Program-made: the position numbers and the translations under genes
Shown here: piece after piece, positions 786-64,000 of the stretch
Position numbering within the stretch: the stretch's first letter is position 1
Layout of the letters: every line of letters starts with the position of its first letter
Assembly (NCBI GenBank): GCA_012797775.1
Contig: JAAZOM010000029.1
Coordinates: 3,722 to 67,721 of the forward strand
From: Candidatus Kuenenbacteria bacterium
GTDB lineage: Bacteria; Patescibacteriota; Patescibacteriia; UBA2196; GWA2-42-15
Direction of reading: 5' to 3'
Length of the DNA: 64,000 nt
The notes under the pieces: generated by a model
Told to the model about the DNA's origin: nothing
Databases searched by the model: none
Seen by the model: only the letters and a program-made list of their open reading frames with translations

Positions 786-865
786 CGTCTGCCATCGCCT
801 TGAACACTACCGGGCTCGAACCGTTTGAGAGTAATACCAGGCCCTCCGCCCTGCTTTCAAGAAAT

Positions 866-939
866 TGGACTGTGCGAGATTCGAACTCGCGACCTCCTGC
901 TTGCAAAGCAGGCGCTCTAACCAACTGAGCTAACAGCCC
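866..939 (-). tRNA. tRNA-Ala (anticodon TGC)
   Basis: Hand-folded cloverleaf GGGCTGT..(anticodon loop TTTGCAA)..GGTTCGAATCT..ACAGTCCA, with a G3:U70-style acceptor stem. Confidence 0.85.
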
Positions 940-947
940 AAAATATT

Positions 948-1205
948 TTAGTATGGTTGAGTAAAATTGCCACCCATGCGCCCAAAGATTGAGACTAAAA
1001 GAGATTCACCAATACCGCTGATAGCTAGTAAGGCGATTATAATAATAGTAATGCCGATTAGCTTCCACATGAGGCGCGTGCCCCCATAGGTTCCAAGATA
1101 GTGATCAGCCCACTCTGTGTGCCCAAAGTTGTCAACAATGCTATTGCTATATTTGACAATAAAAAATCCGGCGACGATGGCGAGGAAGCTAAAAAAATAC
1201 TTCAT
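948..1205 (-). CDS. Small hypothetical membrane protein
   Basis: 85-aa ORF with hydrophobic segments. Confidence 0.5.
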   Translation of the reverse strand: MKYFFSFLAIVAGFFIVKYSNSIVDNFGHTEWADHYLGTYGGTRLMWKLIGITIIIIALLAISGIGESLLVSIFGRMGGNFTQPY

Positions 1206-1229
1206 ACTTTTGTTTTTTTAAAATTATAC

Positions 1230-1306
1230 TGGTGGACGATGTAGGGTTCGAACCTACGACCTCCTCGGTGTAAACGAGGCGCTCTAACCAACTGAGCTAA
1301 TCGTCC
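1230..1306 (-). tRNA. tRNA-Val (anticodon TAC), CCA encoded
   Basis: Cloverleaf GGACGAT..loop TTTACAC..GGTTCGAACCC..ATCGTCCACCA. Confidence 0.85.
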
Positions 1307-1310
1307 TTGT

Positions 1311-1331
1311 TGGTACCGCTACGGGGGATCG
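1311..1331 (-). repeat. 21-bp direct repeat of the tRNA-Glu 3' end (att-like)
   Basis: TGGTACCGCTACGGGGGATCG is identical at 1311-1331 and 1480-1500. The copies flank a ~148-bp segment. Confidence 0.7.
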
Positions 1332-1479
1332 GGTCCGGGGCAGCGGCAAATCCTGCGCCAGCTCTGATTTGCCGTCGTCTCGCTCGCCAATTTCGGCGGG
1401 CTCACTTCTGCCCTTCGATTCCCTGAGAATCAAAAATGTTTTGCCTTAAATCAGAATAATCAAAATTTAAAATATTCGG

Positions 1480-1554
1480 TGGTACCGCTACGGGGGATCG
1501 AACCCCGATTTTCAGGATGAAAACCTGATGTCCTAACCATTAGACGATAGCGGC
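1480..1554 (-). tRNA. tRNA-Glu (anticodon TTC), CCA encoded
   Basis: Cloverleaf GCCGCTA..loop TTTTCAT..CGGGGTTCGATCCCCCG..TAGCGGTACCA. Confidence 0.85.
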
Positions 1555-1690
1555 GCAAAAAGGTAAAGGTAGATTGTATTTTTAAAAAATAACCCTTTTT
1601 TGGGGTGAATACAAAAATATGGTATCATTATCTGGACAATTTGGCAAGGTTGAGGTAATAATATCTTTGTTATTATAAAGGATAATAAAT

Positions 1691-2806
1691 ATGTTGATTT
1701 TGGGTATTGAAACATCTTGTGACGAAACAGCAGCAGCCGTTTTGGAAATAAAGAACGGCAGTTTTAGAATTTTGTCCAATTTGGTCTCTTCGTCGGTAGA
1801 ATTACAGGCACGGTATGGCGGTATTGTGCCAGAAGTGGCGGCCAGAAAACAGGTAGAATTTGTAATGCCGGTTTTAGAGCAGGTTAAAAAACTAGGAATT
1901 CCAAAAAATATTGATTATATTGCAGTAACAAGTGGTCCGGGGTTGATTACTTCACTTCGAGTGGGGGTGGAGGCGGCTAGAACATTGAGTTATATTTGGA
2001 AAAAACCCTTAATGCAGGTTAATCATTTGGAAGGACACATTTATTCAGCTTTGCTGAATAAAATTCAAAATTCAAAATTCAAAGTCCCTGCCTCGCCGGC
2101 AGGCGGGCAAAATAAACCACAAATCCAAAATAAAAATTTTCAAAGGTTGCCAAAGCTGGTATTCCCAGCGTTGGCGTTGGTGGTGTCTGGCGGGCACACG
2201 CAGTTGGTTTTGATGAGGAATTATTTAGATTACAAAATTATTGGGGAGACTCTGGACGATGCGGTGGGAGAGGCTTTTGATAAAGTGGCAAAAATTTTGG
2301 ATTTAGGTTATCCTGGCGGGCCGGTTATTGCAAAAATGGCCGAAGGGGGGGATAAAAGTAGTTTTGAATTGCCAAGGCCAATGATGAATAGCGGGGATTA
2401 TAATTTTTCTTTTGCAGGATTAAAGACGGCGGTTTTATATAAAACTTTAAATCATAAAAATGTTAAATCATTAAAACAAAAAAGAGATTTGTGTGCTAGT
2501 TTTCAGGAGGCCTGTGTAGATGTTCTCATCAATAAAACAATCAGGGCGGCAAAAGAATATAAAGTAAAGACAATATTGGTGGGTGGTGGTGTGGCGGCGA
2601 ATAAAGAATTAAGAGAAAGATTGGAGAGAGAGGCTGGCGAATTGAAGGGAGTAAAATTATTGATACCAGAAATAAAGTATACTGGTGATAATGCGGCGAT
2701 GATCGCTTTGGTAGGGTATTTTAGGACAATAAGAGCATTAAAGCGCAAAAGTATTAAAAAGGTAGACTGGGGGAAGGCAAAAGTGGATCCGAATATGGAG
2801 CTATAA
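1691..2806 (+). CDS. tsaD: tRNA N6-adenosine threonylcarbamoyltransferase TsaD (Kae1/YgjD family)
   Basis: N-terminus MLILGIETSCDETAAAVL plus conserved GPG and HLEGH motifs. It carries a ~30-aa low-complexity insertion (IQNSKFKVPASPAGGQNKPQIQNKNF) encoded by a repeat element. Confidence 0.9.
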   Translation: MLILGIETSCDETAAAVLEIKNGSFRILSNLVSSSVELQARYGGIVPEVAARKQVEFVMPVLEQVKKLGIPKNIDYIAVTSGPGLITSLRVGVEAARTLSYIWKKPLMQVNHLEGHIYSALLNKIQNSKFKVPASPAGGQNKPQIQNKNFQRLPKLVFPALALVVSGGHTQLVLMRNYLDYKIIGETLDDAVGEAFDKVAKILDLGYPGGPVIAKMAEGGDKSSFELPRPMMNSGDYNFSFAGLKTAVLYKTLNHKNVKSLKQKRDLCASFQEACVDVLINKTIRAAKEYKVKTILVGGGVAANKELRERLEREAGELKGVKLLIPEIKYTGDNAAMIALVGYFRTIRALKRKSIKKVDWGKAKVDPNMEL

Positions 2807-2861
2807 ATAAGAAGAATAATACCGTCGGTTATGTAACCGACGGTATTATTTTTTATAAAAG

Positions 2862-3425
2862 TTATATTTTATCGCGGAGTTTGAGATCGTAGATGATCGA
2901 TTCTATTTTCTTGAGATTGGTGCCGATGATTTCTAGTTTGGTCCGAGTGGAATTATTTCTAGTGATACTCAAAGGAATAATCAAATCATAGATTTTGGAG
3001 ACATAGTCGTGAATGGCTTTAACCTGTTTTTCGTTTTGATGGGCTAGCCGGACGAGTTCACCGGTCAGATCGGAGAGACCGCCGAGATAAGTGTCGGGCG
3101 TGACCTTGAGCGAGGTGGCAGTGGGCAGGGGTTTATTTTTTATATAATTGTAAAGTAGGACAGCCTCGACGTATTCTTCAAAACCGACATTGATGGCGGG
3201 GATGGCATAAAGATATGGATGGCGACCTAACTTTTTTTGAAGGACATCAAAGATTTTGTGCATTTCCGGTAAGTTTTTGACCACGGCCTCGGAATTATTT
3301 TTAATCAGAAAACTGATAGTTGATTTGGATAAAATTCGTAGCTTGTCGGAGAGATTCATGCAAGCGCTGCGTTCGCGGTTGTGCTCTTCGTAGAGCCTGT
3401 AGGGGATCTGGGGAAGTTTGGGCAT
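2862..3425 (-). CDS. Translin-family protein (putative)
   Basis: YLGGLSDLTGELVRLA resembles the translin/TRAX signature. Recognised by eye only. Confidence 0.4.
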   Translation of the reverse strand: MPKLPQIPYRLYEEHNRERSACMNLSDKLRILSKSTISFLIKNNSEAVVKNLPEMHKIFDVLQKKLGRHPYLYAIPAINVGFEEYVEAVLLYNYIKNKPLPTATSLKVTPDTYLGGLSDLTGELVRLAHQNEKQVKAIHDYVSKIYDLIIPLSITRNNSTRTKLEIIGTNLKKIESIIYDLKLRDKI

Positions 3426-3456
3426 AAAATAAATTAAAAAATAAAAGCAAGGATCC

Positions 3457-3533
3457 TGGTGGGCATGCTGGGATTTGAACCCAGGACCCCCACTTTATAA
3501 GAGTGGTGCTCTAACCAACTGAGCTACATGCCC
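3457..3533 (-). tRNA. tRNA with anticodon TAT (tRNA-Ile-UAU type), CCA encoded
   Basis: Cloverleaf GGGCATG..anticodon stem CCACT/AGTGG with loop CTTATAA..GGGTTCAAATCCCAG..CATGCCCACCA. Confidence 0.75.
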
Positions 3534-3597
3534 ATATAAATTAACCTAAAATTCAAAGCCTAAAGCTCAAAAGCAAAATAATAAAAAATATTTATTA

Positions 3598-3674
3598 TGG
3601 TGGGTCCGAGAGGAGTTGAACCTCTGACCTCTTGCGTGTCATGCAAGCGCTCTAACCAACTGAGCTACGAACCC
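3598..3674 (-). tRNA. tRNA-Val (anticodon GAC), CCA encoded
   Basis: Cloverleaf GGGTTCG..loop ATGACAC..GGTTCAACTCC..CGGACCCACCA. Confidence 0.85.
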
Positions 3675-3743: not shown

Positions 3744-4883
3744 TCAATGGATGGGCCGGATAAATTCCCTTAGTTGATTTATAACTGCTTGTTCCGCCAA
3801 AATCAGTCGGGTTTCTTTTAGTTGAAAACAGGCCCGATTTTTTGTACCAGTGCCCTGCCATGGACTGGCAAGATCAAGGGCGTTGTAGTTGGGTGAGGTA
3901 TAGATCTCTCCATTTATATTGCCAGTATTTGTTTCAAATAAAAGAACGGTAATTTTGATATGCGGGGAACGAGAGAGGAGTTCGTTTACTACGCCCTCTA
4001 GATCTTCAATAGAGCCACCGGATTTTTGAAAGTCAGTTTGGCTGACAAGAGACCAGGCCAGATTATAGTGGGTGTCTTGTTTGAGACGAGCCAAGATGCG
4101 GCCCCAGAGATTGAGGGTGGTGATGCTTTTGTTTTTATTGAGATTATTGATAATGTAGCTTTGATCTGCCCCGAGCTTCATAAGGTAAGAGGCATTGTGC
4201 AAACACTCCGGGGTAATAGCAGGGGTGCGGAAGTTTTCTGTTTTTAAAATAATACCGGAGAGTAGATTGGTAGCAATTTCTGAATTTATGTTTTCTGGTT
4301 GAGTGCTGTTTAAAAGATTGAAAAGCAACTCTGAGCAAGAAGAGGTGTTTAGGCTGATGTGGTTTATCTGCCCAAACCTTTCATTGGCGGGGTGATTGTC
4401 AATATTGATAATAGTAGTTTGGAAAAAAAATTCTGGCTCTTTAGAATAAAGACGCCCAAGAGATTCAAGGTCTTGGCAGCCGGCGGTAATAATTAAGTCA
4501 TATTTATAATTACTGGGTTCTATCGTAATAGATTCTTTTTTAATTTCACCAGACAGGGGGGTAATATAAATTTTTAATTGATTGTTTTTGAGGTTGTAAT
4601 TAAAATCTTTGACGGGATTTTTTTCGACATCTAGAGTTATGATTAGTTTTTTTAGTGGTTCATTGATTGTTTTAATGTTTTCTGAACCAAAGAGAAAAGA
4701 AAATTTATTTTTTAATTTTTCACTCACGACAATATCTGCTGGCTTGTTTATTTTTTGGAGAAACAATTTGAGCGCCAAGATAGAGGCGATGCCGTCGCCC
4801 GTATCGTTTTCGTTAGTAGTGAGTAGAATATGGTGTGAATTTTTGATTAATTCAGAAATTTGTTGGTTGAGGGTGAGAGACAT
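3744..4883 (-). CDS. DHH-family phosphoesterase (NrnA-like oligoribonuclease/pAp phosphatase)
   Basis: N-terminal DTGDGIASILAL motif and a DNH(P) motif, with a DHH/DHHA1-like architecture. Confidence 0.7.
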   Translation of the reverse strand: MSLTLNQQISELIKNSHHILLTTNENDTGDGIASILALKLFLQKINKPADIVVSEKLKNKFSFLFGSENIKTINEPLKKLIITLDVEKNPVKDFNYNLKNNQLKIYITPLSGEIKKESITIEPSNYKYDLIITAGCQDLESLGRLYSKEPEFFFQTTIINIDNHPANERFGQINHISLNTSSCSELLFNLLNSTQPENINSEIATNLLSGIILKTENFRTPAITPECLHNASYLMKLGADQSYIINNLNKNKSITTLNLWGRILARLKQDTHYNLAWSLVSQTDFQKSGGSIEDLEGVVNELLSRSPHIKITVLLFETNTGNINGEIYTSPNYNALDLASPWQGTGTKNRACFQLKETRLILAEQAVINQLREFIRPIH

Positions 4884-5025: not shown

Positions 5026-7035
5026 TTGAATAATATGAATGTGACAGAATTGGCGAGAAAATTAAAGATTACACCAAACAAGTTGAAGGAAATAATGCCG
5101 CAACTCGGTTTTGATATTGGGGCGAGGGCGATAAAGGTGGATCCCAAGATGGCGCAGGCAATAATAGAAAAAATGTCTGATCCAGCGGTGAGAGAGAAAT
5201 ATTTGAATGAGGGTGAGCCTATGACAAAGAGAGAGACAGCCCAAGAAGAAAAAAAACAAGAAGGGGAAGTCGGTATTATAAAAGTACCAGAGAAAATAGT
5301 GGTAAAAGAGCTAGCGAGAAGAATGAACATACCGGTGGCTAATCTAATTTTAGAATTGATGAAAAATGGAGTGATGGCACCACTGAATCAATATATTGAT
5401 TTTGAGACAGCGTCTATCATCGCTGAAGATATGGGTTTTGGGGTAGAAAAATCAGAGGAGAGTGATCTGGAAATAGATAATGAAGCGGAACAGAGGAAAC
5501 TTTTGGCGATAGATCAGGACAGTGCTAGCCCAAGGCCGCCGATAGTAGTGGTGATGGGCCATGTGGATCACGGTAAAACAAAATTGTTGGATGCTATTAG
5601 AAATACAAATATAATGGAAGGGGAGGCCGGTGGTATTACTCAACATATTGGAGCTTATCAGGTGGAAAGAGGGGGAAGACTCCTGACCTTTATTGACACT
5701 CCAGGACACGAGGCTTTTTCGGCAATGCGTTCAAGGGGGGCCAAGGTGGCTGATATTGCGATACTTCTAGTGGCGGCTGATGATGGGGTCCAGCCGCAAA
5801 CAATAGAGGCCTTGGCGCACATTAGAAAAGCCGAGCTACCATTTATTGTAGCAATAAACAAAATAGATAAACCCGGAGCCAACATAGAAAAAGTGAAGGG
5901 CGATTTGGCAAATATTGGTCTTGCACCAGAAGACTGGGGCGGAAAAACTATTTGCGTAGAAATATCGGCCAAGGAAAATATAAATATTTCTTTACTTTTA
6001 GAAAATTTATTTTTGGTGGCTGATTTAAATAAAGAAAAGATTGTAGCCAATATTTCCGTGGCGGCCGCCGGGACGATTATTGAATCACACATAGATAAGG
6101 GTGAGGGTCCAGTAGCGACTGTCTTGATCCAAAACGGGACGCTGATGGGGGGTGATTTGGTAAAGATCGGTAATGTGGTTGGCAAGATCAGAATAATGAA
6201 AAATTGGAAGGGAGAGCAAATAGAAAAAGCGACACCCTCAATGCCAGTAAGGATTTTGGGCTTAAAGGCGATACCCAGAGTGGGCGATATTTTGCAAGTA
6301 GTAGAGAATCAAAAAGAGTTGAAAAAATTGTCAAAGATAAAAATTAGCGAGCCGCAGAGGGTGGTCAGTAATACTTTTAACAGTCGGGATAAAAACAATG
6401 AGGAAGAAAATGAAAAGCCCAAAGTAAATATTATTCTCAAGTCAGATGTGTTGGGTTCGGTGGAGGCGATAATAGAGTCTTTACTAAAAATAGAAAAAGG
6501 GGGAGTCTCGGTCGCCGTGATAAAACAGGGCCTTGGTAATATAACCGAAAAGGATATAGAGCAGGCGGCGGCTCTTGGCGCGGAGGTGCTTGGGTTTAAT
6601 GTAAAAATTACACCGGAGGCTAAAAAGATGTCTACAGACAAAGGGGTTGAAGCGGTCGTGTCTGGGGTTATTTATGATCTACTTGATTTTGTAGAAAAAA
6701 AAGTAATTGACTTGGCCGGAGTAGAAATAATAGAAAAGGTGGTTGGTCGCTTGAAGGTAGTGGCAATATTTAGAACAGAAAAGAGAGAACAGATTATCGG
6801 AGGAAAAGTGGAGAGTGGACGGGCGGTTCCAGAGATACAAGCGAGGGTTTTCCGGAAAAATCAATTGGTAGGCGAAATTAAAATAAAAGAGGTTGAGGCC
6901 GGTCGGACGAAAGTAAAAGAGGTTTTGGAGGGAGAGGAATGCGGCATGAGAATAGAATCAAAGATAGAAATAGAAAAGAATGATGTTCTGGAATTATTTA
7001 CAAGAGAAGAGAAAAAGAGATATGGACAGTCATAA
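5026..7035 (+). CDS. infB: Translation initiation factor IF-2
   Basis: GHVDHGKTKLLD, DTPGHEAF and NKID G-domain motifs, with IF-2 domain order. Confidence 0.95.
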   Translation: MNNMNVTELARKLKITPNKLKEIMPQLGFDIGARAIKVDPKMAQAIIEKMSDPAVREKYLNEGEPMTKRETAQEEKKQEGEVGIIKVPEKIVVKELARRMNIPVANLILELMKNGVMAPLNQYIDFETASIIAEDMGFGVEKSEESDLEIDNEAEQRKLLAIDQDSASPRPPIVVVMGHVDHGKTKLLDAIRNTNIMEGEAGGITQHIGAYQVERGGRLLTFIDTPGHEAFSAMRSRGAKVADIAILLVAADDGVQPQTIEALAHIRKAELPFIVAINKIDKPGANIEKVKGDLANIGLAPEDWGGKTICVEISAKENINISLLLENLFLVADLNKEKIVANISVAAAGTIIESHIDKGEGPVATVLIQNGTLMGGDLVKIGNVVGKIRIMKNWKGEQIEKATPSMPVRILGLKAIPRVGDILQVVENQKELKKLSKIKISEPQRVVSNTFNSRDKNNEEENEKPKVNIILKSDVLGSVEAIIESLLKIEKGGVSVAVIKQGLGNITEKDIEQAAALGAEVLGFNVKITPEAKKMSTDKGVEAVVSGVIYDLLDFVEKKVIDLAGVEIIEKVVGRLKVVAIFRTEKREQIIGGKVESGRAVPEIQARVFRKNQLVGEIKIKEVEAGRTKVKEVLEGEECGMRIESKIEIEKNDVLELFTREEKKRYGQS

Positions 7036-10679: not shown

Positions 10680-10759
10680 ATTAATTTTTAATTTTATAAT
10701 TTTTAATTTTTAAACAATTTTCAATTTTATAATTTTTAAAATAAGAAAGAGTGCCATGA

Positions 10760-10830
10760 GGCGCTCTTTTTGGTTTATAAAAAATAAAAAACCTGCCAAG
10801 ACAATTTCGTCTGGCAGGTTTGCTCTGTGG
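10760..10830. terminator. Bidirectional terminator pair between rnc and the GC-rich island
   Basis: Hairpin AAGAGTGCC..GGCGCTCTT followed by T-run on the plus strand. Hairpin CCTGCCAG..CTGGCAGG followed by TTTTTTATTTTTT on the minus strand. Confidence 0.55.
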
Positions 10831-12590: not shown

Positions 12591-12665
12591 TGGAGCGGGT
12601 AGGGGGAGTCGCACCCCCATCTTGTCCTTGGCAAGGACACATAATAGCTGCTATACGATACCCGC
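12591..12665 (-). tRNA. tRNA-Trp (anticodon CCA), CCA encoded
   Basis: Cloverleaf GCGGGTA..anticodon loop TGCCAAG..GGGGGTGCGACTCCCCC..TACCCGCTCCA. Confidence 0.85.
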
Positions 12666-25138: not shown

Positions 25139-25223
25139 TGGTGCCCAGGGCGGGAATCGAACCCGCATGACCGAAGCCGCAGGATTTTAAGTCCTGTGCG
25201 TCTACCAGTTCCGCCACCTGGGC
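25139..25223 (-). tRNA. tRNA-Leu (anticodon TAA), CCA encoded
   Basis: Cloverleaf with long variable arm. Anticodon loop CTTAAAA. Confidence 0.85.
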
Positions 25224-25224
25224 G

Positions 25225-25299
<75 letters not shown>

Positions 25300-25400
25300 G
25301 TAAATTAATTTTAAATTTTCAATCCCCAAACAATTTTAATTAATAAATTATTAAAGCTATAAAAGTATCCTAACAGAAACAGTTTGGTTGGTAAAGATAT

Positions 25401-25482
25401 TGCTGGAGGGGAGACTCGAACTCCCAAGCCTTGCGGCACATGCTCCTAAGGCATGCGCGTATACCAATTCCGCCACTCCAGC
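25401..25482 (-). tRNA. tRNA-Leu (anticodon TAG)
   Basis: Cloverleaf GCTGGAG..loop CTTAGGA..long variable arm..GGGAGTTCGAGTCTCCC..CTCCAGCA. Confidence 0.8.
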
Positions 25483-48153: not shown

Positions 48154-48296
48154 CTCGCCTCGCTGGACCCGCCTAGACTCGTTAGGCGAGGCTGGCGCAA
48201 GTCGAAGCGGGCTGGGATTTGTCCCGAGATAAACTCGGGATAAAAACCCAGACTAGCGGGACCATCCCCCACCAAAATTTGGAGGAAGGGTGTCCG

Positions 48297-48372
48297 GGGG
48301 TGACTAGAGGGAATTGAACCCTCGCTAGCGGGACCACAACCCGCTGTTCTACCATTAAACTATAGTCACCCC
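48297..48372 (-). tRNA. tRNA-His (anticodon GTG) with encoded G-1
   Basis: G-1 + GGGTGAC acceptor, anticodon loop TTGTGGT, T arm GAGGGTTCAATTCCCTC. No CCA. Confidence 0.85.
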
Positions 48373-48409
48373 CCAACATCCTTGTCTGCTTGGGGGTTTT
48401 GGTGGGGGA

Positions 48410-48438
48410 CTGTTCTACTACTAAACTATAGTCACCCC
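48410..48438 (-). pseudogene. Partial duplicate of the tRNA-His 5' half (acceptor + D arm)
   Basis: GGGGTGACTATAGTTTAGTAGTAGAACAG mirrors the tRNA-His 5' half but lacks anticodon and T arms. Confidence 0.5.
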
Positions 48439-48458
48439 TAAATATCTTTTTGTTGAGC

Positions 48459-48533
48459 TGGTACCCCCGAGAGGAATCGAACCCCTATAACCAGCTTAGA
48501 AGGCTGGTGTTCTATCCATTGAACTACGGGGGC
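48459..48533 (-). tRNA. tRNA-Arg (anticodon TCT), CCA encoded
   Basis: Cloverleaf GCCCCCG..loop CTTCTAA..GGGGTTCGATTCCTCT..CGGGGGTACCA. Confidence 0.85.
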
Positions 48534-56180: not shown

Positions 56181-56220
56181 ATCCCTAGTGAGAACTGGGG
56201 ATGTTTTATTTTTGTAATTT
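56181..56220 (+). terminator. Rho-independent terminator after rpoC
   Basis: ACATCCCTAGTGAGAACTGGGGATGT hairpin followed by TTTATTTTTG. Confidence 0.7.
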
Positions 56221-56253: not shown

Positions 56254-56706
56254 TTAAGCTTTGTTTTTTAGTAGCTTGATGGCTTCCAAAGAAAGTGCTT
56301 TTGTATTTTTGGGGGCGCCCCCAAGAGTTTTTATTTCCTTGGCAGTAAACCATTTTAGGTTGGTGGTCTCTCCATTTTGCGGATTAATTTTATTAGATTT
56401 AGCTGAAGCATAATAGATAAAGTCTATATGTTGGTGGAATTGATTGATATTTTCCAGCAAGATGTGCATGGGGCGAAATAATTGCTTGGCATCTCCCATT
56501 TTTATTTGTTTATCAGGATTATACATTGTTATTTCTAGGCCAGATTCTTCTTTTATTTCGCGCAAGGCGGCTTCCTGCGGCAATTCATCGCGGTCGATAT
56601 GGCCTCCAACAGGAATCCAAATACCGAGCTTTTTGTGCAAATGTAAAAGCACTTTATTTTTGTGTACTATTATGGTTGTAGCGGTAAAGTGTCTTGTTAT
56701 TTCCAT
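56254..56706 (-). CDS. NUDIX hydrolase
   Basis: Nudix box GGHIDRDELPQEAALREIKEESGL. Confidence 0.8.
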   Translation of the reverse strand: MEITRHFTATTIIVHKNKVLLHLHKKLGIWIPVGGHIDRDELPQEAALREIKEESGLEITMYNPDKQIKMGDAKQLFRPMHILLENINQFHQHIDFIYYASAKSNKINPQNGETTNLKWFTAKEIKTLGGAPKNTKALSLEAIKLLKNKA

Positions 56707-56734: not shown

Positions 56735-56955
56735 GCATAACGTACGCGTGTATGTGATGTCCGCCGTTAGGCGGATATGGGCGAAGGTTCACCGATAGGG
56801 GAACCGTAGCCACATACACGCTGTTATATGATGTACGCTTTTTCTTTTAACCCAATAGGGTCGTTTTTCTGTTATAGATCAAATTGATTTTTCATTTGGC
56901 GGGGGCGCAAGAGGGAAAATCAAAAAGGGTGAATTGCGCCCCCCGCCAACACAAT
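56735..56955 (-). ncRNA. Structured noncoding leader element, copy 1 (upstream of the NUDIX gene)
   Basis: An 11-bp outer stem GCGTGTATGTG/CACATACACGC encloses two hairpins. Conserved single-stranded TGATGT, ATATGGG.G.AGG and GTTATATGATGT blocks. A second hairpin has the conserved loop GAGGGAAAAT.AAAGGGTGAA. It is homologous to 59372-59660 with compensatory stem changes. Confidence 0.45.
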
Positions 56956-56963
56956 CGTATTAA

Positions 56964-58457
56964 TTATAGTGCTCCACCTAGTCGTATATACCCGTCGTAA
57001 GGGGCCGGTGCTTTTTCTCCTGTGATACCTTGGTCAAGGTCGAAACCAATTGATCTATCGGCAAGTCCCTCATCTTTTCCTATTGCGGAAAATAATACTG
57101 AATTTGCGCTGGTGTCTGGCACTTTTTCTTCCCGACGAAAAAAAGATAATTCTGCGTCTGAATCGCACTCACGATCTAAATTTATGGATGACGCTCTAAT
57201 ATCCGTTTCGTCAAGTAGGTCAGCAACATTTTGTCTGCCTTCCATGCTGTCGCGCGCAACATGTGCGTTGCCTAAAATCGCTAACATTTTTCCGCCACCT
57301 TCAACAACTTCGCGAATTTTTTGCATCATGAAGATATCTCGTTGTTTTTCCAGTTCCGCCTCTTTTGCCTTTAAAGTCTCCATTGTCACGCCATTGCGTC
57401 CAAGTGATTCCATACCCCGATCAAGTTCCTGGTTTGTGCCATAAGTCGCATTTGCGTCTATACAAGATGGACGCAAGCCAGACTGGCGTATTGCTTCTAA
57501 CAAACGGTAATTTTTGTCCAAATGGTTTTTGAATAAAAAGTTTTTTTTAAACATTTTTTGTTGTTCAAAAGCGAACATTTCATCAGTTACGCCCTCTCGT
57601 TTGATAGCACGGTATTGTCCTCCTTCATCTCGTTGAAAATCAAATAATGGTTGATTTTTAGGGTCAACACCAGCAGTAAGCTGTTCTCGAAATAATTGGT
57701 GATATTCATCTACTCGCTCGTAGTCGGTCGGGTCGTCTGCGTCGTCAAATTTGCCGGTAGTCATATAATGATCAACTGCCTCTTGATAATACGCTGGTAT
57801 TTCTAAACCTATATGCGTTGTGCCAGCGGCCTTGGCTTGTTCAAGAAATCTTGCTGTTGCTCTTTTTTCAACAGTTTCGTGGGTGTGTATTTCGCCAAGT
57901 AAAACAACATCGTTGCCACGTATTTTATCCGATAAGTATTCGCCCGCATTTTTTGCTCGCTCTCTCACTTGACCCATATCTACTTGTGATTCTAATCTGC
58001 TACGTTCTTTTGAACCTATCCCTAGCTGTTTTTCGCCAACGTAAAATCCAGTAAAAAATTTATTCTTCTCTTTTGGTTTATTTCTCCCTCTCTCAAATAA
58101 ACCTCCTGTTAAAAAATTAGCGACGGACAAAAATCGCTCCTTCATTCGACCAAGAGATAAGTCCAGCCGGCGTAATTTATCCGCTGTTTCTTTTTGAATT
58201 TCGGCAAATTGCGCATTTAGTTCGGGCGGAAATTCGGCACTTGTTTGTTCCTTGCTTTGCAAAGCTGAGAGTGTATCATGTCCGGCTTTCAGCCCTGCGT
58301 CTGTTTCTGTATCAATTTCTCTCTGGATTTTAGAAATATCCGGCAGGCGTTCACGCTCCGGAGTTTCTGGCGGTTTTTCCGCGGTCGCTTCCCGCTGGGC
58401 TAATTTTTCAATTTCCGGATTGGTCATACTGATTGATTTGTTTTTTAACATGCTCAA
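56964..58457 (-). CDS. Hypothetical protein with C-terminal Tiki/TraB/ChaN-superfamily-like domain (two GxxH motifs)
   Basis: VVLLGEIHTHE and AILGNAHVA resemble the paired GxxH motifs of ChaN/TraB/Tiki. N-terminal coiled-coil region. Higher GC than surrounding genes. Confidence 0.4.
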   Translation of the reverse strand: MSMLKNKSISMTNPEIEKLAQREATAEKPPETPERERLPDISKIQREIDTETDAGLKAGHDTLSALQSKEQTSAEFPPELNAQFAEIQKETADKLRRLDLSLGRMKERFLSVANFLTGGLFERGRNKPKEKNKFFTGFYVGEKQLGIGSKERSRLESQVDMGQVRERAKNAGEYLSDKIRGNDVVLLGEIHTHETVEKRATARFLEQAKAAGTTHIGLEIPAYYQEAVDHYMTTGKFDDADDPTDYERVDEYHQLFREQLTAGVDPKNQPLFDFQRDEGGQYRAIKREGVTDEMFAFEQQKMFKKNFLFKNHLDKNYRLLEAIRQSGLRPSCIDANATYGTNQELDRGMESLGRNGVTMETLKAKEAELEKQRDIFMMQKIREVVEGGGKMLAILGNAHVARDSMEGRQNVADLLDETDIRASSINLDRECDSDAELSFFRREEKVPDTSANSVLFSAIGKDEGLADRSIGFDLDQGITGEKAPAPYDGYIRLGGAL

Positions 58458-58584
58458 TTTTCAGCGCGTCAATTTTTGCTTGTGCTTCTTTTACGATTTT
58501 ATTTTTTTCATGCGCAATATCTTGCACACTAGCCTGGTAGTGAGAGAGCAATTTCATGAGCAATTTTGTGATGTTTGTATTCAT
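58408..58584 (-). CDS. Possible 58-aa coupled small ORF
   Basis: Its ATG overlaps the stop of the upstream gene (ATGA), and its 3' end overlaps the annotated start of the downstream gene. Confidence 0.3.
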   Translation of the reverse strand: MNTNITKLLMKLLSHYQASVQDIAHEKNKIVKEAQAKIDALKIEHVKKQINQYDQSGN

Positions 58585-59183
58585 ACGGCTTTTTGTTTTG
58601 AACGTTCTTGTGAGTAGATAAATACTAGTTTTGAATTGCCTTTTTCAGCTTTGATACCAATATCACCAATTTGATTTACATCATATCCAAAATTTTGAAG
58701 ATGTGGCTGTAATTTTTCCGCCTCACCTTTGGGAATGAGCAAGTGCAAACCCTCGCGCGGAATTGATGGATCATTAATTGTTTCAGTGTCAACAAACAAA
58801 ATGATATTTTGTTTTTGTTCCAATAATTCTACCAGCTTACCGACATCTTTTGCCTCAAGACCGCTGGCCTCAATCGTTCGTTTAGCCAAATCGCCGACTT
58901 CTGTGATATCTTTTCCTTTCATTGCCGATAGTGTATTTTCTTCGGCTTGTTCAATCGCGGCTCTTTCAGTGTCTAGCACCGAACTCCTGTCAAAAGAACG
59001 GATGCCGACCTGTTCGCCGTATGCTGTGTTGGCGACAAGTTTTTCTTGGCCAGGTAATCCCACGTAGTATGTTTCAATCGCGTGCGGTTTTTGAGGTTTG
59101 TCTTTTGTTTCTGGAGCGGGTTGTTTAAGTCTGGATTCTTTTGCGATTTGTTCTTGATTGATTTCTCGTGATCTGTTAGGCAT
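58581..59183 (-). CDS. Hypothetical protein (200 aa), part of the foreign cassette
   Basis: ORF with elevated GC and no recognisable motifs. Confidence 0.5.
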   Translation of the reverse strand: MPNRSREINQEQIAKESRLKQPAPETKDKPQKPHAIETYYVGLPGQEKLVANTAYGEQVGIRSFDRSSVLDTERAAIEQAEENTLSAMKGKDITEVGDLAKRTIEASGLEAKDVGKLVELLEQKQNIILFVDTETINDPSIPREGLHLLIPKGEAEKLQPHLQNFGYDVNQIGDIGIKAEKGNSKLVFIYSQERSKQKAV

Positions 59184-59371
59184 ATGTTTTAAAAATATAT
59201 ATTAAATTGTATTCGCTTGCGAGGGATGGAGCAAGCGAATACACCTTGTTTTTCCCTCATAAAATAATTCGTTTCCGCAGCGATAGCGGAGGAAACACCA
59301 TATTAAATGAAAAATCAATTTGATCGTTATAGAAAAACGGGCGACTGCAGGAGCCAAAAGAAAAAGCGTAT

Positions 59372-59660
59372 TTCATACAACGTTTCGGCATATCTGATGT
59401 TTGCCGTAGCGTAGCGGAGGCAAATATGGGTGGAGGCTTTTGTATAAAAGCCGTAACCAGATATGCCGTGTTATGTGATGTGCATGTTTTACTTTAATCC
59501 CGATAGCAATCGGGCTTGCTCTAAAAAAGAATTTTAATTTTGTTTTTTTGTTTTGGATTTTGGGCAGAGGGGTTAGGGGTGAATGCCCAAAATCCAAAAC
59601 TCCTTATTTTGTTTGAGGGAGGGGCAAGAGGGGAAATAAAGGGGTGAATTGCCCCAACCG
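59372..59660 (-). ncRNA. Structured noncoding leader element, copy 2 (upstream of the cassette)
   Basis: Same architecture as 56735-56955, with outer stem CGGCATATCTG/CAGATATGCCG (compensatory). Includes an extra inverted repeat TTTTGGATTTTGGGCA..TGCCCAAAATCCAAAA. Confidence 0.45.
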
Positions 59661-59668
59661 AAAACGCT

Positions 59669-60715
59669 CTATTTCTTTTTTGTATAATATTTATCAAATT
59701 TTTTCACAATATTCGGGCTATAAAAATCTTTTCTGGAACTTTTTGTATTATCAGGATCAAGATAGCGTGTTCTGCTCAAATTTTTGTCTTTCATTAATTC
59801 TTTACGAAGTTTGTGAAATTTACCGTTCGTCTTAAAATCACCAAATCGTTTATTTAATTCTTTTACTAAACCGCGATAATCAAGCGGATATTTTTTCTTT
59901 AAAATTTCTTCCTCTTCAAGCCTCATGGCTGGCGCATTTGGATCATCTGTTATTTGAACGCCTAAACCGTTTTTACTTTTTCCTGCAACTATTGAAACTG
60001 GTTTGACATCTCCAATAAGTCTTAATACTGGCTTTCCTTTTTCTTGAAAATTACCCTGATTTATAAATTTTAATTTTGGAATCAGTTTTTTATCTATGAC
60101 AAGCGTTCCACCTTTCCCAGTTATTTCTCCGCCGATAGTATCCATAATTGCCGCGTTTGTTGGACCAATTTTTGATATTTTTTCAAAATGCTCCAGCCAG
60201 CCTTTTCTTTCCTCTTCTTTAACAAAATCAAACATCGCTATTATTTCCGGATATTTTATCCTTTCACTTCTTGCATTGTAGCGATAATAAATATCTGCCT
60301 CTTTTAATTCGCCATCATTTTTTAGACACACAATCGGTTTTGTCTTTGCTTGTTGCGTATACAATAATCCAATTTTTTTGGTATTTACGGTTATTTCAAA
60401 TTTTTCAAAAATTATTTCTGGGGCAAAGACACTGTTTAGGTACGCGGTAATTTTAGCTTCGTCCACCTCTTCAAAATTATTGCTTTGAAGTCCAACAAGA
60501 TCACGCGGTTTATCTTTTATCCCGAAAACAATATATCCGCCCTTATTGTTTGCAAAAGCAACCATGCTTTTTGCGTATTTGTCTTTTGAATTCCAGTTGA
60601 AAGATTCTTTAAATTCAAGCCACCCACTTTCACGCGAGATTATTCTATCTGCGATTGTTTCGTGGAACAAAAAAATCTTGTTGTATTCATCGTTATTTTT
60701 AAAATCATTGCTCAT
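59669..60715 (-). CDS. AlbA_2 (Schlafen-like) domain protein
   Basis: ESGWLEFKESF and VAFANNKGGYIVFGIKDK match the AlbA_2/divergent-AAA DNA-binding domain signature. Its start is 2 nt after the res stop. Confidence 0.6.
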   Translation of the reverse strand: MSNDFKNNDEYNKIFLFHETIADRIISRESGWLEFKESFNWNSKDKYAKSMVAFANNKGGYIVFGIKDKPRDLVGLQSNNFEEVDEAKITAYLNSVFAPEIIFEKFEITVNTKKIGLLYTQQAKTKPIVCLKNDGELKEADIYYRYNARSERIKYPEIIAMFDFVKEEERKGWLEHFEKISKIGPTNAAIMDTIGGEITGKGGTLVIDKKLIPKLKFINQGNFQEKGKPVLRLIGDVKPVSIVAGKSKNGLGVQITDDPNAPAMRLEEEEILKKKYPLDYRGLVKELNKRFGDFKTNGKFHKLRKELMKDKNLSRTRYLDPDNTKSSRKDFYSPNIVKKFDKYYTKKK

Positions 60716-60717
60716 AT

Positions 60718-63006
60718 TTATTTTAGATCAAAAACTTCCCACCCTTTCATTGATGAATCAAAAGAATACTTTGCGTTGCGGTTAATTTTCCAGCCATTCG
60801 GGCCGTCTTGGACGGCTATACCGCCGTCAAAATCTTTTCTGCCTTTCAGCCACGCTTGCAAGGCCTCCGCTTTATATTTTGTATCGTTACTCTCGGCGGT
60901 AATACCAGCTTTTGTATCAATAATTATAACGCCCTTTTTAGTCTTAATGATCCAGTCAGGATAAAATAGTTTTTCTTTGTTCTCATCGGGGTTATAGTAG
61001 GAAATTGAAAAATGCTCACTTCCATTGTCGCCGTTTTTATGCCACCAAATTACGCTTTTATTTTGAGGCGATTCGAGAAACTTGATAAAGTTTTTCTCAT
61101 TATCGTTTCCGCCGAAAAGCCCTGCTTGAGTTTTTTCAAACCAAAAAGGTTCCATTGCTGATTTTTTGACCGCCAATTCCTCGTATTGATCGGTAAAAAA
61201 TAATGCTTCGCGCGGTATTTCAATATGCTCCACGCGCTTCGCGCGTGCCGCTTTTTTATTTACTTCTTGCTCACGGACAGGGCGATATGCTAAAAGTGCA
61301 TCACCGATTACTGGCGCGAGTGCGCCAGCTTCACCAACTAAATCGTTCACAATAACTTTGTAAACGTCCGCGCGTGAAAGTTTTAACTTCTCCATTAGAT
61401 AAATATTGAGTGCGGTTTTGAGCTTGCCCCATGAACGTTCTGGCGCAAATTTACGGTTTTCGTCGGTTTGTTTGGCGACAATTTTGAAACACAATAGATT
61501 ATATAATCGTTCAAGATCATGGCGAGACATTTCTTCATCATAACTCCCGCCTTCTTCAAAAAGCTCCTTTGTAAAATTGTCATAATCGTCAATTTCCACA
61601 CCGACAATTAAGCCGTTTGTAACCTTGGGCTTTAGGTTTAGCTTTTTTGTATCCAGTTTTTTATCCGCTACTTGCTTGAAAGTATTTTGGAATGAATCAC
61701 CCAAGTCGTTATAGTCCGCACGTGTCATAAAGACGGATTCCAGTTTGATCGGTTCAACATTTTTCTTGCGATAACTGCCGTTGATTGCGGGACGGTTTTC
61801 GGTTTTGGATTTTGCGTATTCCGCCAAAACTTCGTTGCGCTTATAGTTAGTGTAAAGATAACCAAGATTAAGTTCGGGGTTGGCAAAGTGGGTGCCAAAT
61901 GGCATACGTAAAATACGCCCGACGGTCTGTATTGCAAAAGTCGGATTCTTTATCTCGCGGAACATCACCAACACGCTCGCGCGCGGACAATCCCAGCCAG
62001 TCGCGACGGCTTGTTTGAACAAGAGAAACGAAACAGGCGAGTTGTGTTTTTCTAAATCTTCCAAATTTTCTTTTTCCTTGGAGAGCCAAACGGCAATTTC
62101 ATCGTTTTTTACACCTTTGCGTTTTAGATACTCCAATACAATCGTCTGTTTAGTTGTGTCACTCGTTTCTTTGCTTGCTTGATCGTCATTTGGAAGTTGA
62201 ATTAAAACAAGTGGATTAACTTCAACGCCGATCTTTTTGTACAAATCAATCAATTCTTTCCGTTTGGAATACGCTAATTCCAAAAGCATTTCGTCTTGGT
62301 CAAGTTTTTTGACGGCTTTCTGTTTTAAATCTTCTTCTGTCTGAAAAACAATTTTTTCTTTGATTAACCCTGCTTCAACGACATCACTTCGCTTTGCTTC
62401 AACATATCCCGCAGTTTCGGCGCGAGTAGGAATATATTTCGGCGTAGCCGACACGCGAAGCGTGATTTTTGGTTTGATAAGTCCATCCACCACTTCCATA
62501 GCAAGATCGGTGTCGCTTCCGATATGTTCCTCATCAATAATTACAACAATTTTGCGTCCTGCGTCGTGGGTTTCGTTGATAAAATTATCAAAAGTCAACC
62601 CTTGCTCATTTTCACGGCGTAATTTACGACTATCCTTGCTTTTGCCTTTTATTTTCTGCCAGTTTATAAAAAAGACATCATTTTGATGAAGTTTCTCGCG
62701 CGAAAGGTCGTTTAAGTCAATTAAATCAAGCTCACTTGCTCCGCCATAATAATCAAAAAGTTTCTTTTTGCTCTGTTCGTAAGAATCCTCGCTGAAAGAA
62801 AACCACACAAAAGCTACATCATTGCCCTGAAATCGGGGATCGCTGACAATATCGCGCAAAAATTGTGCCAACATTATCGTTTTACCGCTTCCAGTCGGCG
62901 ATTTAAAAACAAGCGGTATATTTTGATTTGGCAATTTCCACAAATTCAAAAACTGATCTTTGAGTTGTGATATTGCTGTTTCTTGAAATGGTTTTAAAGC
63001 AAACAT
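60718..63006 (-). CDS. res: Type III restriction enzyme Res subunit (helicase-like)
   Basis: Walker A SPTGSGKT and DEAH-like IIDEEH, with SF2 helicase motifs. 762 aa. Confidence 0.85.
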   Translation of the reverse strand: MFALKPFQETAISQLKDQFLNLWKLPNQNIPLVFKSPTGSGKTIMLAQFLRDIVSDPRFQGNDVAFVWFSFSEDSYEQSKKKLFDYYGGASELDLIDLNDLSREKLHQNDVFFINWQKIKGKSKDSRKLRRENEQGLTFDNFINETHDAGRKIVVIIDEEHIGSDTDLAMEVVDGLIKPKITLRVSATPKYIPTRAETAGYVEAKRSDVVEAGLIKEKIVFQTEEDLKQKAVKKLDQDEMLLELAYSKRKELIDLYKKIGVEVNPLVLIQLPNDDQASKETSDTTKQTIVLEYLKRKGVKNDEIAVWLSKEKENLEDLEKHNSPVSFLLFKQAVATGWDCPRASVLVMFREIKNPTFAIQTVGRILRMPFGTHFANPELNLGYLYTNYKRNEVLAEYAKSKTENRPAINGSYRKKNVEPIKLESVFMTRADYNDLGDSFQNTFKQVADKKLDTKKLNLKPKVTNGLIVGVEIDDYDNFTKELFEEGGSYDEEMSRHDLERLYNLLCFKIVAKQTDENRKFAPERSWGKLKTALNIYLMEKLKLSRADVYKVIVNDLVGEAGALAPVIGDALLAYRPVREQEVNKKAARAKRVEHIEIPREALFFTDQYEELAVKKSAMEPFWFEKTQAGLFGGNDNEKNFIKFLESPQNKSVIWWHKNGDNGSEHFSISYYNPDENKEKLFYPDWIIKTKKGVIIIDTKAGITAESNDTKYKAEALQAWLKGRKDFDGGIAVQDGPNGWKINRNAKYSFDSSMKGWEVFDLK

Positions 63007-63008
63007 AA

Positions 63009-64000
63009 TTATATCCTGTTAATTTCTTTGTAAACTTCAATAATCGGCTCTGGAATATCTTCGACTCTGATATTCGCGGACGAATACTCGCCTTTGTATT
63101 CGTTTTTACCCCAGCTGAAAATATATAAAGCCGTCGGTAAATTTTTCTTTTCCAATTTGGCTATTAACTCGCCGAGCTTTGTCTTGTCTTCCTTAAAATA
63201 AATTGCGGTTAATTTTCCATTACCTTCAAAAATTTGCCACCAATCATTTTTCTCAATTTCATTGAGCGTATCTTCTCGCACCCCGATCATTTCGCCTGCT
63301 TCGTAGGTTATGCGGATTTTCGCTTCGTCCGGCACTTTGTGGATTTGCTCAATGTCCACGAGGTCGGTTTGGTAATAAAAAAGATTACTTGGAATACCAG
63401 CGACTCTCTCATTTTTTTTGTTCTTGTAGCCGTTAATAACTGCCTTAATACGCGGATAGCAAACTGATTCAGCAATTCCGCCGTTTCCACCGTTGTTGTT
63501 TTCGTTGTTGGTGCAAAGAATAAATTTACGATTGCCACCGTCAATCTTGTTCATTTCTAAAACAGCGTGTCCAGTTGTCCCAGATCCAGCGAAAAAATCC
63601 AAAACATTTGCATTTGGACGCGATCCTACAACGGCAAAGAGACAATCGTAAACAGTATAGAGTGACTTAGGAAAGTCAAAATCACACTTTGGTAATATCT
63701 CACGCAAAAGTTTTGTTCCGTATTCACTTGCGTCGTATTTTTTGTCAGTCCAAACAGTTTTATAAGTGCCGTAATCTTTCGCAATCATTATTTGAACAAT
63801 GCCACCGCGTGATTCTTTAATTTGGAGGATGTCTTTTATTTCTTCAACGCTTTGTCGTGCGTATCGCCATTTTCGCTCGACACCTTTTTCGTCAATCGGC
63901 CAAATATAAATACTACCGTCTTTTTGTTTTTCGTTTGCCGATTTTGGATGAAATTCGTTTGACGCAACATCACCAAAACCAATAATCTTTCCACCTTTTA
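63009..64000 (-). CDS. mod: Type III N6-adenine DNA methyltransferase Mod subunit (5' end outside window)
   Basis: DFFAGSGTTGHA (FxGxG motif I) in the C-terminal part. The frame stays open to the window edge. Confidence 0.8.
   Translation of the reverse strand, partial: KGGKIIGFGDVASNEFHPKSANEKQKDGSIYIWPIDEKGVERKWRYARQSVEEIKDILQIKESRGGIVQIMIAKDYGTYKTVWTDKKYDASEYGTKLLREILPKCDFDFPKSLYTVYDCLFAVVGSRPNANVLDFFAGSGTTGHAVLEMNKIDGGNRKFILCTNNENNNGGNGGIAESVCYPRIKAVINGYKNKKNERVAGIPSNLFYYQTDLVDIEQIHKVPDEAKIRITYEAGEMIGVREDTLNEIEKNDWWQIFEGNGKLTAIYFKEDKTKLGELIAKLEKKNLPTALYIFSWGKNEYKGEYSSANIRVEDIPEPIIEVYKEINRI

Follow-up and report, generated by a model that had tools for sequence, protein, structure and literature searches.

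Integrons, Xer systems and the locus under study

Integrons recombine the bottom strand of their attC sites. The crossover is located inside the outer box, which makes the start of a cassette complementary to the far box in that cassette's own attC. In Xer systems with a single recombinase, the site can adjoin the gene, as in XerS/difSL. An additional domain specific to IntI, placed around patch III, was reportedly described by Messier and Roy in 2001. IntegronFinder defines integron integrases by the IntI-specific domain (PMC9668308), and the archaeal integrons (Ghaly et al. 2022), which were found with IntegronFinder, have IntIs that keep the domain and attCs that are canonical (PMC9668308). 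Here we analyze a stretch of 64,000 nucleotides (the window) from contig JAAZOM010000029.1, belonging to a Candidatus Kuenenbacteria genome of the candidate phyla radiation (CPR), an origin also indicated by an exact RpoC match. It contains two copies of a structured element, whose cores lie on the + strand at positions 56737-56834 and 59379-59481. From the boundaries of the accompanying DNA segments, natural insertions and a linked tyrosine recombinase, we conclude that the two elements are very probably attC-like recombination sites of an integron-like platform.

The two sites and their family

The initial annotation had described two copies with a shared architecture, an 11-bp outer stem and the conserved blocks TGATGT, ATATGGG.G.AGG and GTTAT.TGATGT. 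The sequence confirms the positions, the stem and the presence of the blocks in both copies, which are 72% identical and differ in their stems by compensated changes. Site 1 (56737-56834) starts with ATAAC, whose AAC occupies 56739-56741, followed by the spacer GTAC and by the outer stem P1, where 11 bp are formed between GCGTGTATGTG (56746-56756) and CACATACACGC (56811-56821). Inside P1, the arm P2 (56757-56778) is built by ATGT and CCGCC, a GTTA loop, GGCGG and ATAT, and the arm P3 (56780-56811) by GGC, a GAA-internal loop, a hairpin, GTA and GCC. The core ends with a T and the tail GTTATATGATGT (56823-56834). Site 2 (59379-59481) has its AAC at 59379-59381, the spacer GTTT, a P1 formed by CGGCATATCTG (59386-59396) and CAGATATGCCG (59458-59468), P2 and P3 arms as in site 1, and the final T with the tail GTTATGTGATGT (59470-59481). 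The two internal hairpins noticed earlier are present, but that description missed the ATGT/ATAT and GGY/RCC pairings, which are additional helices.

A 22-base pattern taken from the conserved blocks was used to scan a genome collection. It gave 105 loci, nearly all in metagenome-assembled genomes (MAGs) of CPR/Patescibacteria, with a few short contigs labelled otherwise; the host groups comprise Uhr-, Moran-, Magasanik-, Kuenen-, Peregrini-, Gracili- and Saccharibacteria, WWE3 and others. A related pattern located at least 120 loci in metagenomes. Coding false positives of a looser three-block pattern (loci L122-124, L128 and others) were removed by demanding the P1 complement, and a viral collection scanned with the loop motif alone returned chance matches only (L001-L120). 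The covariance-model search that had been suggested was carried out with a model built from a 46-sequence alignment and, together with an nhmmer profile, yielded 460 copies in 215 loci. Since many covarying homologues exist elsewhere, the pair is not a simple local duplication followed by drift. The model matched site 1 with 104 bits (E=2.7e-23) and site 2 with 120 bits (E=3e-27). Built from the copies of other genomes, it found no match in the 64 kb besides these two, and prediction of tRNA and tmRNA genes gave nothing in the element region.

Cassette ends and natural insertions

A cassette consists of a site and the one to three opposite-strand genes that follow it, and is bounded at the conserved AAC. 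The half-site on the left of the AAC is part of the neighbouring cassette, whose own GTT arm it complements. Among 116 informative pairs of adjacent sites, the 9 nt preceding the AAC of one site complemented the GTT extension of the previous site, about 1 kb away, rather than that of their own site in 86 cases versus 18, with 12 ties (Wilcoxon p=5e-12). In the window, the segment 56823-56899 matches the reverse complement of 59296-59381 over ~77 nt, while the right flank of site 2 itself is of a different type. One arm of this inverted repeat is made of the site 1 tail and the + strand linker of cassette 1 (56835-56899), which includes a small hairpin at 56850-56861. The other contains the integrase-proximal end of cassette 1 (59296-59378, + strand), an inverted copy of the site 1 linker that ends in ATTTCATAC right before the AAC of site 2. 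The segments 56823-56848 and 59356-59381 are 88% complementary. In a circular cassette, the half-site at 59296-59378 would rejoin site 1.

The second cassette can be followed on L357, a contig of the same sample that overlaps the window from 59505 to 64000, extends past it, carries four further sites and ends exactly at ATTTCGTCTAAC. Cassette 2 ends beyond the window with ATTTCACATAAC, complementary to GTTATGTGAT of site 2; this is one of the four perfect matches among five consecutive cassette ends on L357, the fifth having one mismatch. With the four sites of L357, the array has at least six cassettes. The window holds the two distal sites of this array in the Candidatus Kuenenbacteria genome, site 1 being the distal-most.

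Natural variants differ by whole cassettes inserted exactly at AAC. Cassettes shared between loci mostly stem from the same genome seen twice, and the informative pairs are L167/L218 and L353/L354 only. L167 has one extra cassette with respect to L218, with breakpoints at TAAC and half-sites swapped as expected. L353 and L354 encode an identical recombinase protein, and their DNA is 100% identical up to ATTTCACATAAC and again from TCGTTTATATG. L353 has an extra unit of 889 bp between CACATAAC and TCGTTTATATG, beginning with a site and ending in ATTTCGCCTAAC; it is a cassette inserted at the attI-like site described below. The 179-amino acid open reading frame (ORF) of that cassette (9001-9889 of L353) is placed on the recombinase strand, the reverse of the usual cassette orientation.

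Recombinase and attI-like site

Clustering of all ORFs of the loci revealed one recurrent enzyme, a tyrosine recombinase of ~270 amino acids present in 28 loci. In 26 of them its gene is on the site strand, divergent from the cassette genes, and past the same end of the array, at 0.2-2.8 kb and typically 500-800 bp from it. A reciprocal test starting from four recombinase homologues on long contigs found sites in all four cases, only upstream and on the same strand. The upstream genes at these loci are accessory, lie on the opposite strand and include ApaLI restriction-modification, CBASS SMODS/AGS_C, HicA, SET, GmrSD, CYTH and DUF488, and downstream of the recombinase are the core genes lepA, divIC and clpB. 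The 195 kb surrounding distant viral recombinases, examined as a control, contained three weak model matches only. On L367, a viral-labelled contig, two weak matches (25-26 bits; 1649-2222) lie on the same strand and upstream of a distant recombinase (35% identity), and may represent a remote relative of the system.

The arrays end at an attI-like site upstream of the divergent recombinase gene. Its motif, ATTTCnnnTAAC followed by TCGTTTATATRCGAAC, is found 95-115 nt upstream of the recombinase start codon in at least 20 of 24 loci and in all five recombinase-anchored loci. The left half resembles the left flank of every site and the right half is unique to this position, as would be expected of an attI, hence the assignment. 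Read directly from the sequences, an imperfect 14-bp palindrome, TCGTTTATATACGA, is contained in it.

The catalytic residues R133, K158, H222, R225, H248 and Y257 of the recombinase are conserved (in A7/A8). Its best solved relatives by sequence are the integron integrase VchIntIA bound to attC (2A3V) and XerA (4A8E), the two being level; the predicted fold (pLDDT 78) puts VchIntIA narrowly ahead of XerA. The alignment to VchIntIA is split in two blocks, 9-184/8-186 and 196-272/241-317, so that ~54 IntI residues face 11 residues of the CPR protein, and the predicted model has no extra helix at residues 180-198. The XerA family NF040815 is matched with 216-231 bits, for a cutoff of 220. More than 7,500 relatives exist in databases, the closest being CPR proteins named XerD or 'site-specific tyrosine recombinase/integron integrase', and the clade is absent from viral contigs, where the best match has 41% identity.

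These properties raise the question of whether a chromosome-dimer resolvase acting on double-stranded sites is being exploited by modules, as is the case for IMEX elements, which use dif, and for pdif modules on Acinetobacter plasmids. The recombinase matches XerA and IntI about equally well and has no IntI domain, its gene occupies a conserved core-genome position beside lepA, and a site next to the gene is familiar from XerS/difSL. However, the sites are imperfect palindromes of 100-260 nt with a covarying three-way junction instead of dif-like cores of 28-34 bp, and the asymmetry of their strands in folding (see below) would have no role in double-strand Xer recombination. Moreover, the core genes flanking the arrays are co-oriented, against a location at the replication terminus, and at least one locus, L314, has an additional recombinase, longer and XerD-like. 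We therefore regard Xer exploitation as quite unlikely, and an interpretation of the sites as dif at the terminus was rejected on the same co-orientation of core genes at either side of the arrays.

Organization of the arrays and of the repeated unit

At least two copies are present in 124 of the 215 loci, and in 122 of these 124 all copies have a single orientation. The median spacing between copies is 900 bp, and 211 of the 234 segments between sites have their longest ORF antisense to the site. The initial annotation had proposed to determine the gene categories downstream of further copies; they are not coherent, as 148 inter-copy ORFs match 149 different Pfam families without a shared theme, among them radical SAM, methyltransferases, NUDIX, restriction-modification, Fic, GmrSD and HAD hydrolases. 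The cargo is heterogeneous and accessory, with many defence genes.

The conserved unit has a sharp edge at TAAC/G (the slash marking the edge), continues through the junction, a linker and a conserved-loop hairpin, and ends at CTCCTTA/T, where, read on the gene strand, the preceding gene has its stop codon region. Units are of two types, each joined to about 50 different left flanks. The unit of site 2 recurs with 92-100% identity in more than 40 other contexts; the homology starts at AAC (59379) and usually stops at CTCCTTAT (59600-59607). Because conservation runs to the stop codon region, the element goes with the gene before it, as part of its 3' end, and is not the leader of the next one. 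The earlier proposal that each copy leads the following transcription unit has thus to be abandoned, each copy being placed at the 3' end of the preceding cassette. The distal-most site of an array follows a gene rather than preceding one.

A family present in multiple copies, 92-100% similar across many genomes, at which assemblies break and of which one copy is found on a phage contig, could also be an intergenic repeat, selfish or passive, of the REP/BIME, BOX or MITE kind, or else a hotspot at which homologous recombination takes place, as in T4-type phages with their PeSL promoter-stem-loop cassettes, with no dedicated recombinase. Such a family would not be expected to keep a uniform orientation within arrays and relative to genes, nor to have both copies of the window in one array. 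Neither terminal inverted repeats nor target duplications were seen at the copies. The breakpoints fall at a single position, AAC, instead of being scattered through the homologous 230 nt, neighbours swap half-sites as in site-specific exchange, and the arrays consistently adjoin one recombinase clade and the attI-like site, the only recurrent enzyme being the tyrosine recombinase and not a RAYT transposase, the enzyme associated with REP. Taken together, these observations make a repeat without its own recombinase very unlikely.

The phage copy is a near-identical site 2 core at the end of contig L121 (IMGVR_UViG_3300001336_000172, 10690-10795), upstream of a 560-amino acid gene, a portal gene and a capsid gene; the contig has no recombinase. 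A phage attachment site was considered for this copy and rejected, given that the recombinase clade is absent from viral contigs and a phage database gave no match. The copy may reflect cassettes carried by phages or a junction between prophage and host.

Structure of the site and the strand that folds

The consensus of 46 sequences consists of P1 of 10-11 bp, an unpaired G, P2 extended by ATGT/ATAT, a second unpaired G, GGY/RCC, a 3x3 GRA/GUA loop and the P3 hairpin. The claim that stems covary while unpaired blocks stay conserved holds for the enlarged family. Among 149 distinct sequences, 96.6% of the cells are in standard pairs, versus 75% when shuffled and 32-46% with the partners slid, and changes on both sides are compensatory in 23 of the 27 pairs, these counts being biased towards the modelled structure because the alignment was fitted to the covariance model. 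An independent MAFFT alignment of the 46 sequences agrees on the covariation. P1 is an unbroken helix of 10-11 bp with 96% of its cells paired over the 149 sequences, and the AAC and GTT at the ends of the site vary little or not at all. In many sites the left flank is GCCTAAC, fitting RYYYAAC, and the outer boxes pair across 5-9 bp. The tip of the site is a conserved three-way junction with invariant unpaired nucleotides, and the conserved irregularities are limited to a G.T wobble, the single unpaired Gs and the purine-rich 3x3 internal loop.

Variants of this plan were observed. In one subfamily (L248, L257, L272, L288, L290, L300 and L311), a long P2 always contains (T)GTATAATA, an extended -10-like box, in its stem; this may be a promoter within the site or a structural feature. 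In the Saccharibacteria array L318, a different structured repeat of ~150 nt precedes each site (2087-2176, 3235-3324, 4064-4153 and 5068-5157); its outer stem pairs AATGAGCTGCGA with TCGCAGCTCATT, it includes CTGTTAGACGATGT, and it resembles a diverged tandem partner site.

According to computed energies, the strand antisense to the cassette genes is the more stable one as single-stranded DNA (ssDNA) in 286 of 295 distinct sites, the mean difference being 3.5 kcal/mol. For site 1 the predicted values are -29.0 kcal/mol for the + strand versus -23.4 for the - strand, and for site 2 -22.5 versus -19.0. At one position, 144 of 146 sequences retain a G.T wobble; elsewhere, G.T pairs exceed A.C mismatches by 65 to 30, a ratio to which the scoring of the model may contribute.

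Strong covariation with conserved unpaired nucleotides, together with a gene-strand location 30-200 nt ahead of a start codon, speaks for the functional RNA favoured by the initial annotation, as a riboswitch-like leader or protein-binding 5' untranslated region controlling the downstream unit. This explanation is largely refuted and we consider it extremely unlikely. The initial annotation could match the element to no riboswitch class, and Rfam gave nothing relevant either at the gathering threshold or at E<=10. The downstream genes have no common function, and the conservation described above reaches the stop codon of the upstream gene, with the distal-most site following a gene. The strand that folds better is the antisense one, and the gene strand would have an A.C mismatch in place of the invariant G.T. 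Furthermore, an RNA leader would leave unexplained the complementarity of ends across ~1 kb, the linkage to a recombinase and the insertions at AAC. Of the earlier interpretation, the RNA leader is not supported; the guess of a protein-binding element points in the right direction. Two other candidates were rejected: a hammerhead-like core, suggested by CUGAUGU after the first stem, since GAAA/UH elements and an Rfam match are missing, and a small protein, suggested by a stop-free gene-strand frame in some copies and by ORFs overlapping 29 of 174 copies, since the length differences in P2 and P3 are not multiples of three.

Proposed mechanism and points against it

We propose that the strand antisense to the cassette genes, the + strand of the window, would fold as ssDNA into a stem closed by AAC/GTT, the 11-bp helix and the conserved three-way junction. 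The recombinase would bind the folded strand and exchange strands at AAC. Exchange with the attI-like site would produce insertion, and exchange with another site would excise a circle. In the recognition of strand and site, the junction nucleotides, the invariant G.T wobble and the GRA/GUA loop may replace the extrahelical bases and the IntI domain.

Several observations weigh against reading the elements as attC-like sites of an integron-like platform: (i) its basis is comparative throughout, and the counts of the 149-sequence alignment carry the bias already indicated; (ii) residues ~187-240 of VchIntIA are unmatched in the CPR recombinase, that is, the IntI-specific domain is missing, and the integron integrase family TIGR02249 matches in two pieces with ~206 bits, for a cutoff of 265; (iii) the 11-bp helix has no extrahelical bases, and a classical attC has a variable tip where the CPR sites have invariant junction nucleotides; (iv) 18 of the 116 adjacent pairs contradict the rule of the cassette ends; (v) some cassettes have three genes or a complete restriction-modification system; and (vi) the recombinase gene was searched for in the 64-kb window and not found, and none was recovered for the genome of the window. 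The score of the recombinase lies at the XerA family threshold, so that the protein could be an enzyme of the Xer type whose primary function is a different one. When transcribed, the element may also act at the RNA level.

Beyond the window, we propose that the CPR/Patescibacteria carry a widespread, undescribed class of integrons, in which a minimal IntI/XerA-like recombinase without the IntI domain reads an ssDNA site with a three-way junction instead of extrahelical bases. This would be either a separate solution or an early form in the passage from Xer to integrase, and would constitute the main store of defence and accessory genes of these reduced genomes. On this broader proposal we are evenly divided. 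If true, gene capture of the integron type would span a large radiation of ultra-small, host-dependent bacteria, and the accessory and anti-phage genes of CPR (restriction-modification, CBASS, GmrSD, HicA, Fic, Schlafen/AlbA) would be organized as exchangeable cassettes. It would also be a natural experiment in the reading of DNA structure, and not sequence, by a tyrosine recombinase, the same job being done seemingly through another protein surface and another fold, and it would bear on how integron integrases arose from Xer-like ancestors. Integron searches relying on the IntI domain and the canonical attC fold would miss this system. Finally, the near-identical units of 230 nt (92-100%) are probably a general cause of fragmented CPR assemblies and would explain their breaks at the sites. 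Assemblies from the source sample break inside or at sites (L125, L126, L357), contig k127_229842 ends at 59505, inside the second copy, and contig k127_2490 ends exactly at ATTTCGTCTAAC.

Conserved-loop hairpins, cassette genes and surroundings in the window

The sites are accompanied by another conserved module, at 56896-56949, 59555-59595 and 59621-59655. It is a hairpin whose stem covaries and whose G-rich loop, AGAGGG(G)-N-(G)GGGTGAAT, is conserved. Across the family it is found 77-84 nt past a site in 139 of 215 loci, nearly always on the site strand and just after the stop codon of the preceding gene. Hairpin A (56896-56949, + strand) is placed between site 1 and the stop codon of the 497-amino acid ORF and has a 14-bp stem with one bulged C and the loop AGAGGGAAAATCAAAAAGGGTGAAT, of the type AGAGGG..GGGTGAAT. 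The 'Type B' linker of cassette 2 (59482-59607, + strand) includes a small hairpin at 59499-59514 and hairpin B at 59555-59595, and ends with CTCCTTAT. Hairpin C (59621-59655, + strand), a second, partly decayed copy of the loop module, lies just past the AlbA_2 stop codon. The initial annotation was right about the hairpin but counted one per copy, and copy 2 has two of them. Intrinsic terminators were considered and rejected, as the big hairpins, including the conserved-loop one, are not followed by a T-run on the gene strand.

The coding part of cassette 1 (56964-59183, - strand) consists of three ORFs, and not of the two genes previously assumed between the copies: 497 amino acids (56964-58457, with a weak ChaN/Tiki-like match), 58 amino acids (58408-58584) and 200 amino acids (58581-59183). 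The coding part of cassette 2 (59669-63788, - strand) contains defence genes, encoding a Schlafen/AlbA_2 protein of 348 amino acids, a type III restriction Res subunit of 762 amino acids and a type III methylase, whose ORF in the window is 63009-63788; as called on L357, the methylase has 572 amino acids and extends beyond 64000. The C-terminus of the AlbA_2 protein matches the PADLOC candidate PDC-S19. Locus L309 has Res and Mod at 93% identity, with other DNA where the window has the AlbA_2 gene.

Beside the distal end of the array is a NUDIX gene (56254-56706, - strand). It is not a complete cassette, because it is followed by a terminator hairpin that it shares with rpoC and by no site. 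The convergent genes rpoC and NUDIX are separated by a hairpin CATCCC...GGGATG with TTTTATTTTT after it (56181-56215), which is probably this shared intrinsic terminator and marks where the array ends distally. The window also has eleven tRNA genes in small clusters (865-3674, 12591-12665, 25139-25482 and 48296-48533), every one on the - strand; they are unrelated to the sites.

Comparison with known systems

With riboswitches and other structured RNAs of Rfam, the element shares a multi-stem junction, covarying stems and conserved junction nucleotides. It differs from them in having no family match or coherent regulon and in that the wrong strand folds best, and its arrays and crossover are DNA-level behaviour. 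The likeness to Xer/dif and the systems that exploit it (XerA, XerS/difSL, IMEX, pdif) resides in a recombinase that is XerA-like in length and profile score and in modules bounded by recombinase sites. However, Xer sites are short double-stranded cores with no required fold, whereas the CPR sites are structured and of at least 100 nt, and the Xer systems have neither cassette arrays with swapped half-sites nor strand asymmetry.

The window by itself looks like a CALIN, a cluster of attC sites without an integrase. Like the archaeal integrons, the CPR system was found in MAGs and extends the integron principle beyond the classical bacterial hosts; unlike the archaeal IntIs, its recombinase would fall outside the definition by the IntI domain. 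As to hosts, these are CPR phyla, and no description of integrons or cassette arrays in CPR, Patescibacteria, Parcubacteria or Saccharibacteria was found in the literature, subscription journals being outside its coverage.

The closest system is the integron, especially the sedentary chromosomal type with near-identical attC sites such as the Vibrio VCRs. The CPR recombinase is ~50 residues shorter and lacks the IntI domain that defines the integrases and contacts the extrahelical bases. In the CPR site, the main helix is free of extrahelical bases, the two spacers differ in length (4 nt / 1 nt), and the tip is a conserved three-way junction instead of the variable terminal structure of attC. 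The CPR units add a conserved-loop hairpin between site and ORF. On the other hand, both systems have a divergent tyrosine recombinase, an insertion site and co-oriented, mostly single-gene cassettes with accessory, defence and toxin genes, and in both the cassettes end in an imperfect palindrome closed by AAC...GTT. Both cross over at the AAC/GTT triplet, the outer half-site belonging to the next cassette, and the strand antisense to the cassette genes, which is the recombining one in integrons, is by computation the one that folds better in the CPR sites. The CPR system very probably works like an integron, yet falls outside the group as delimited by the IntI domain.

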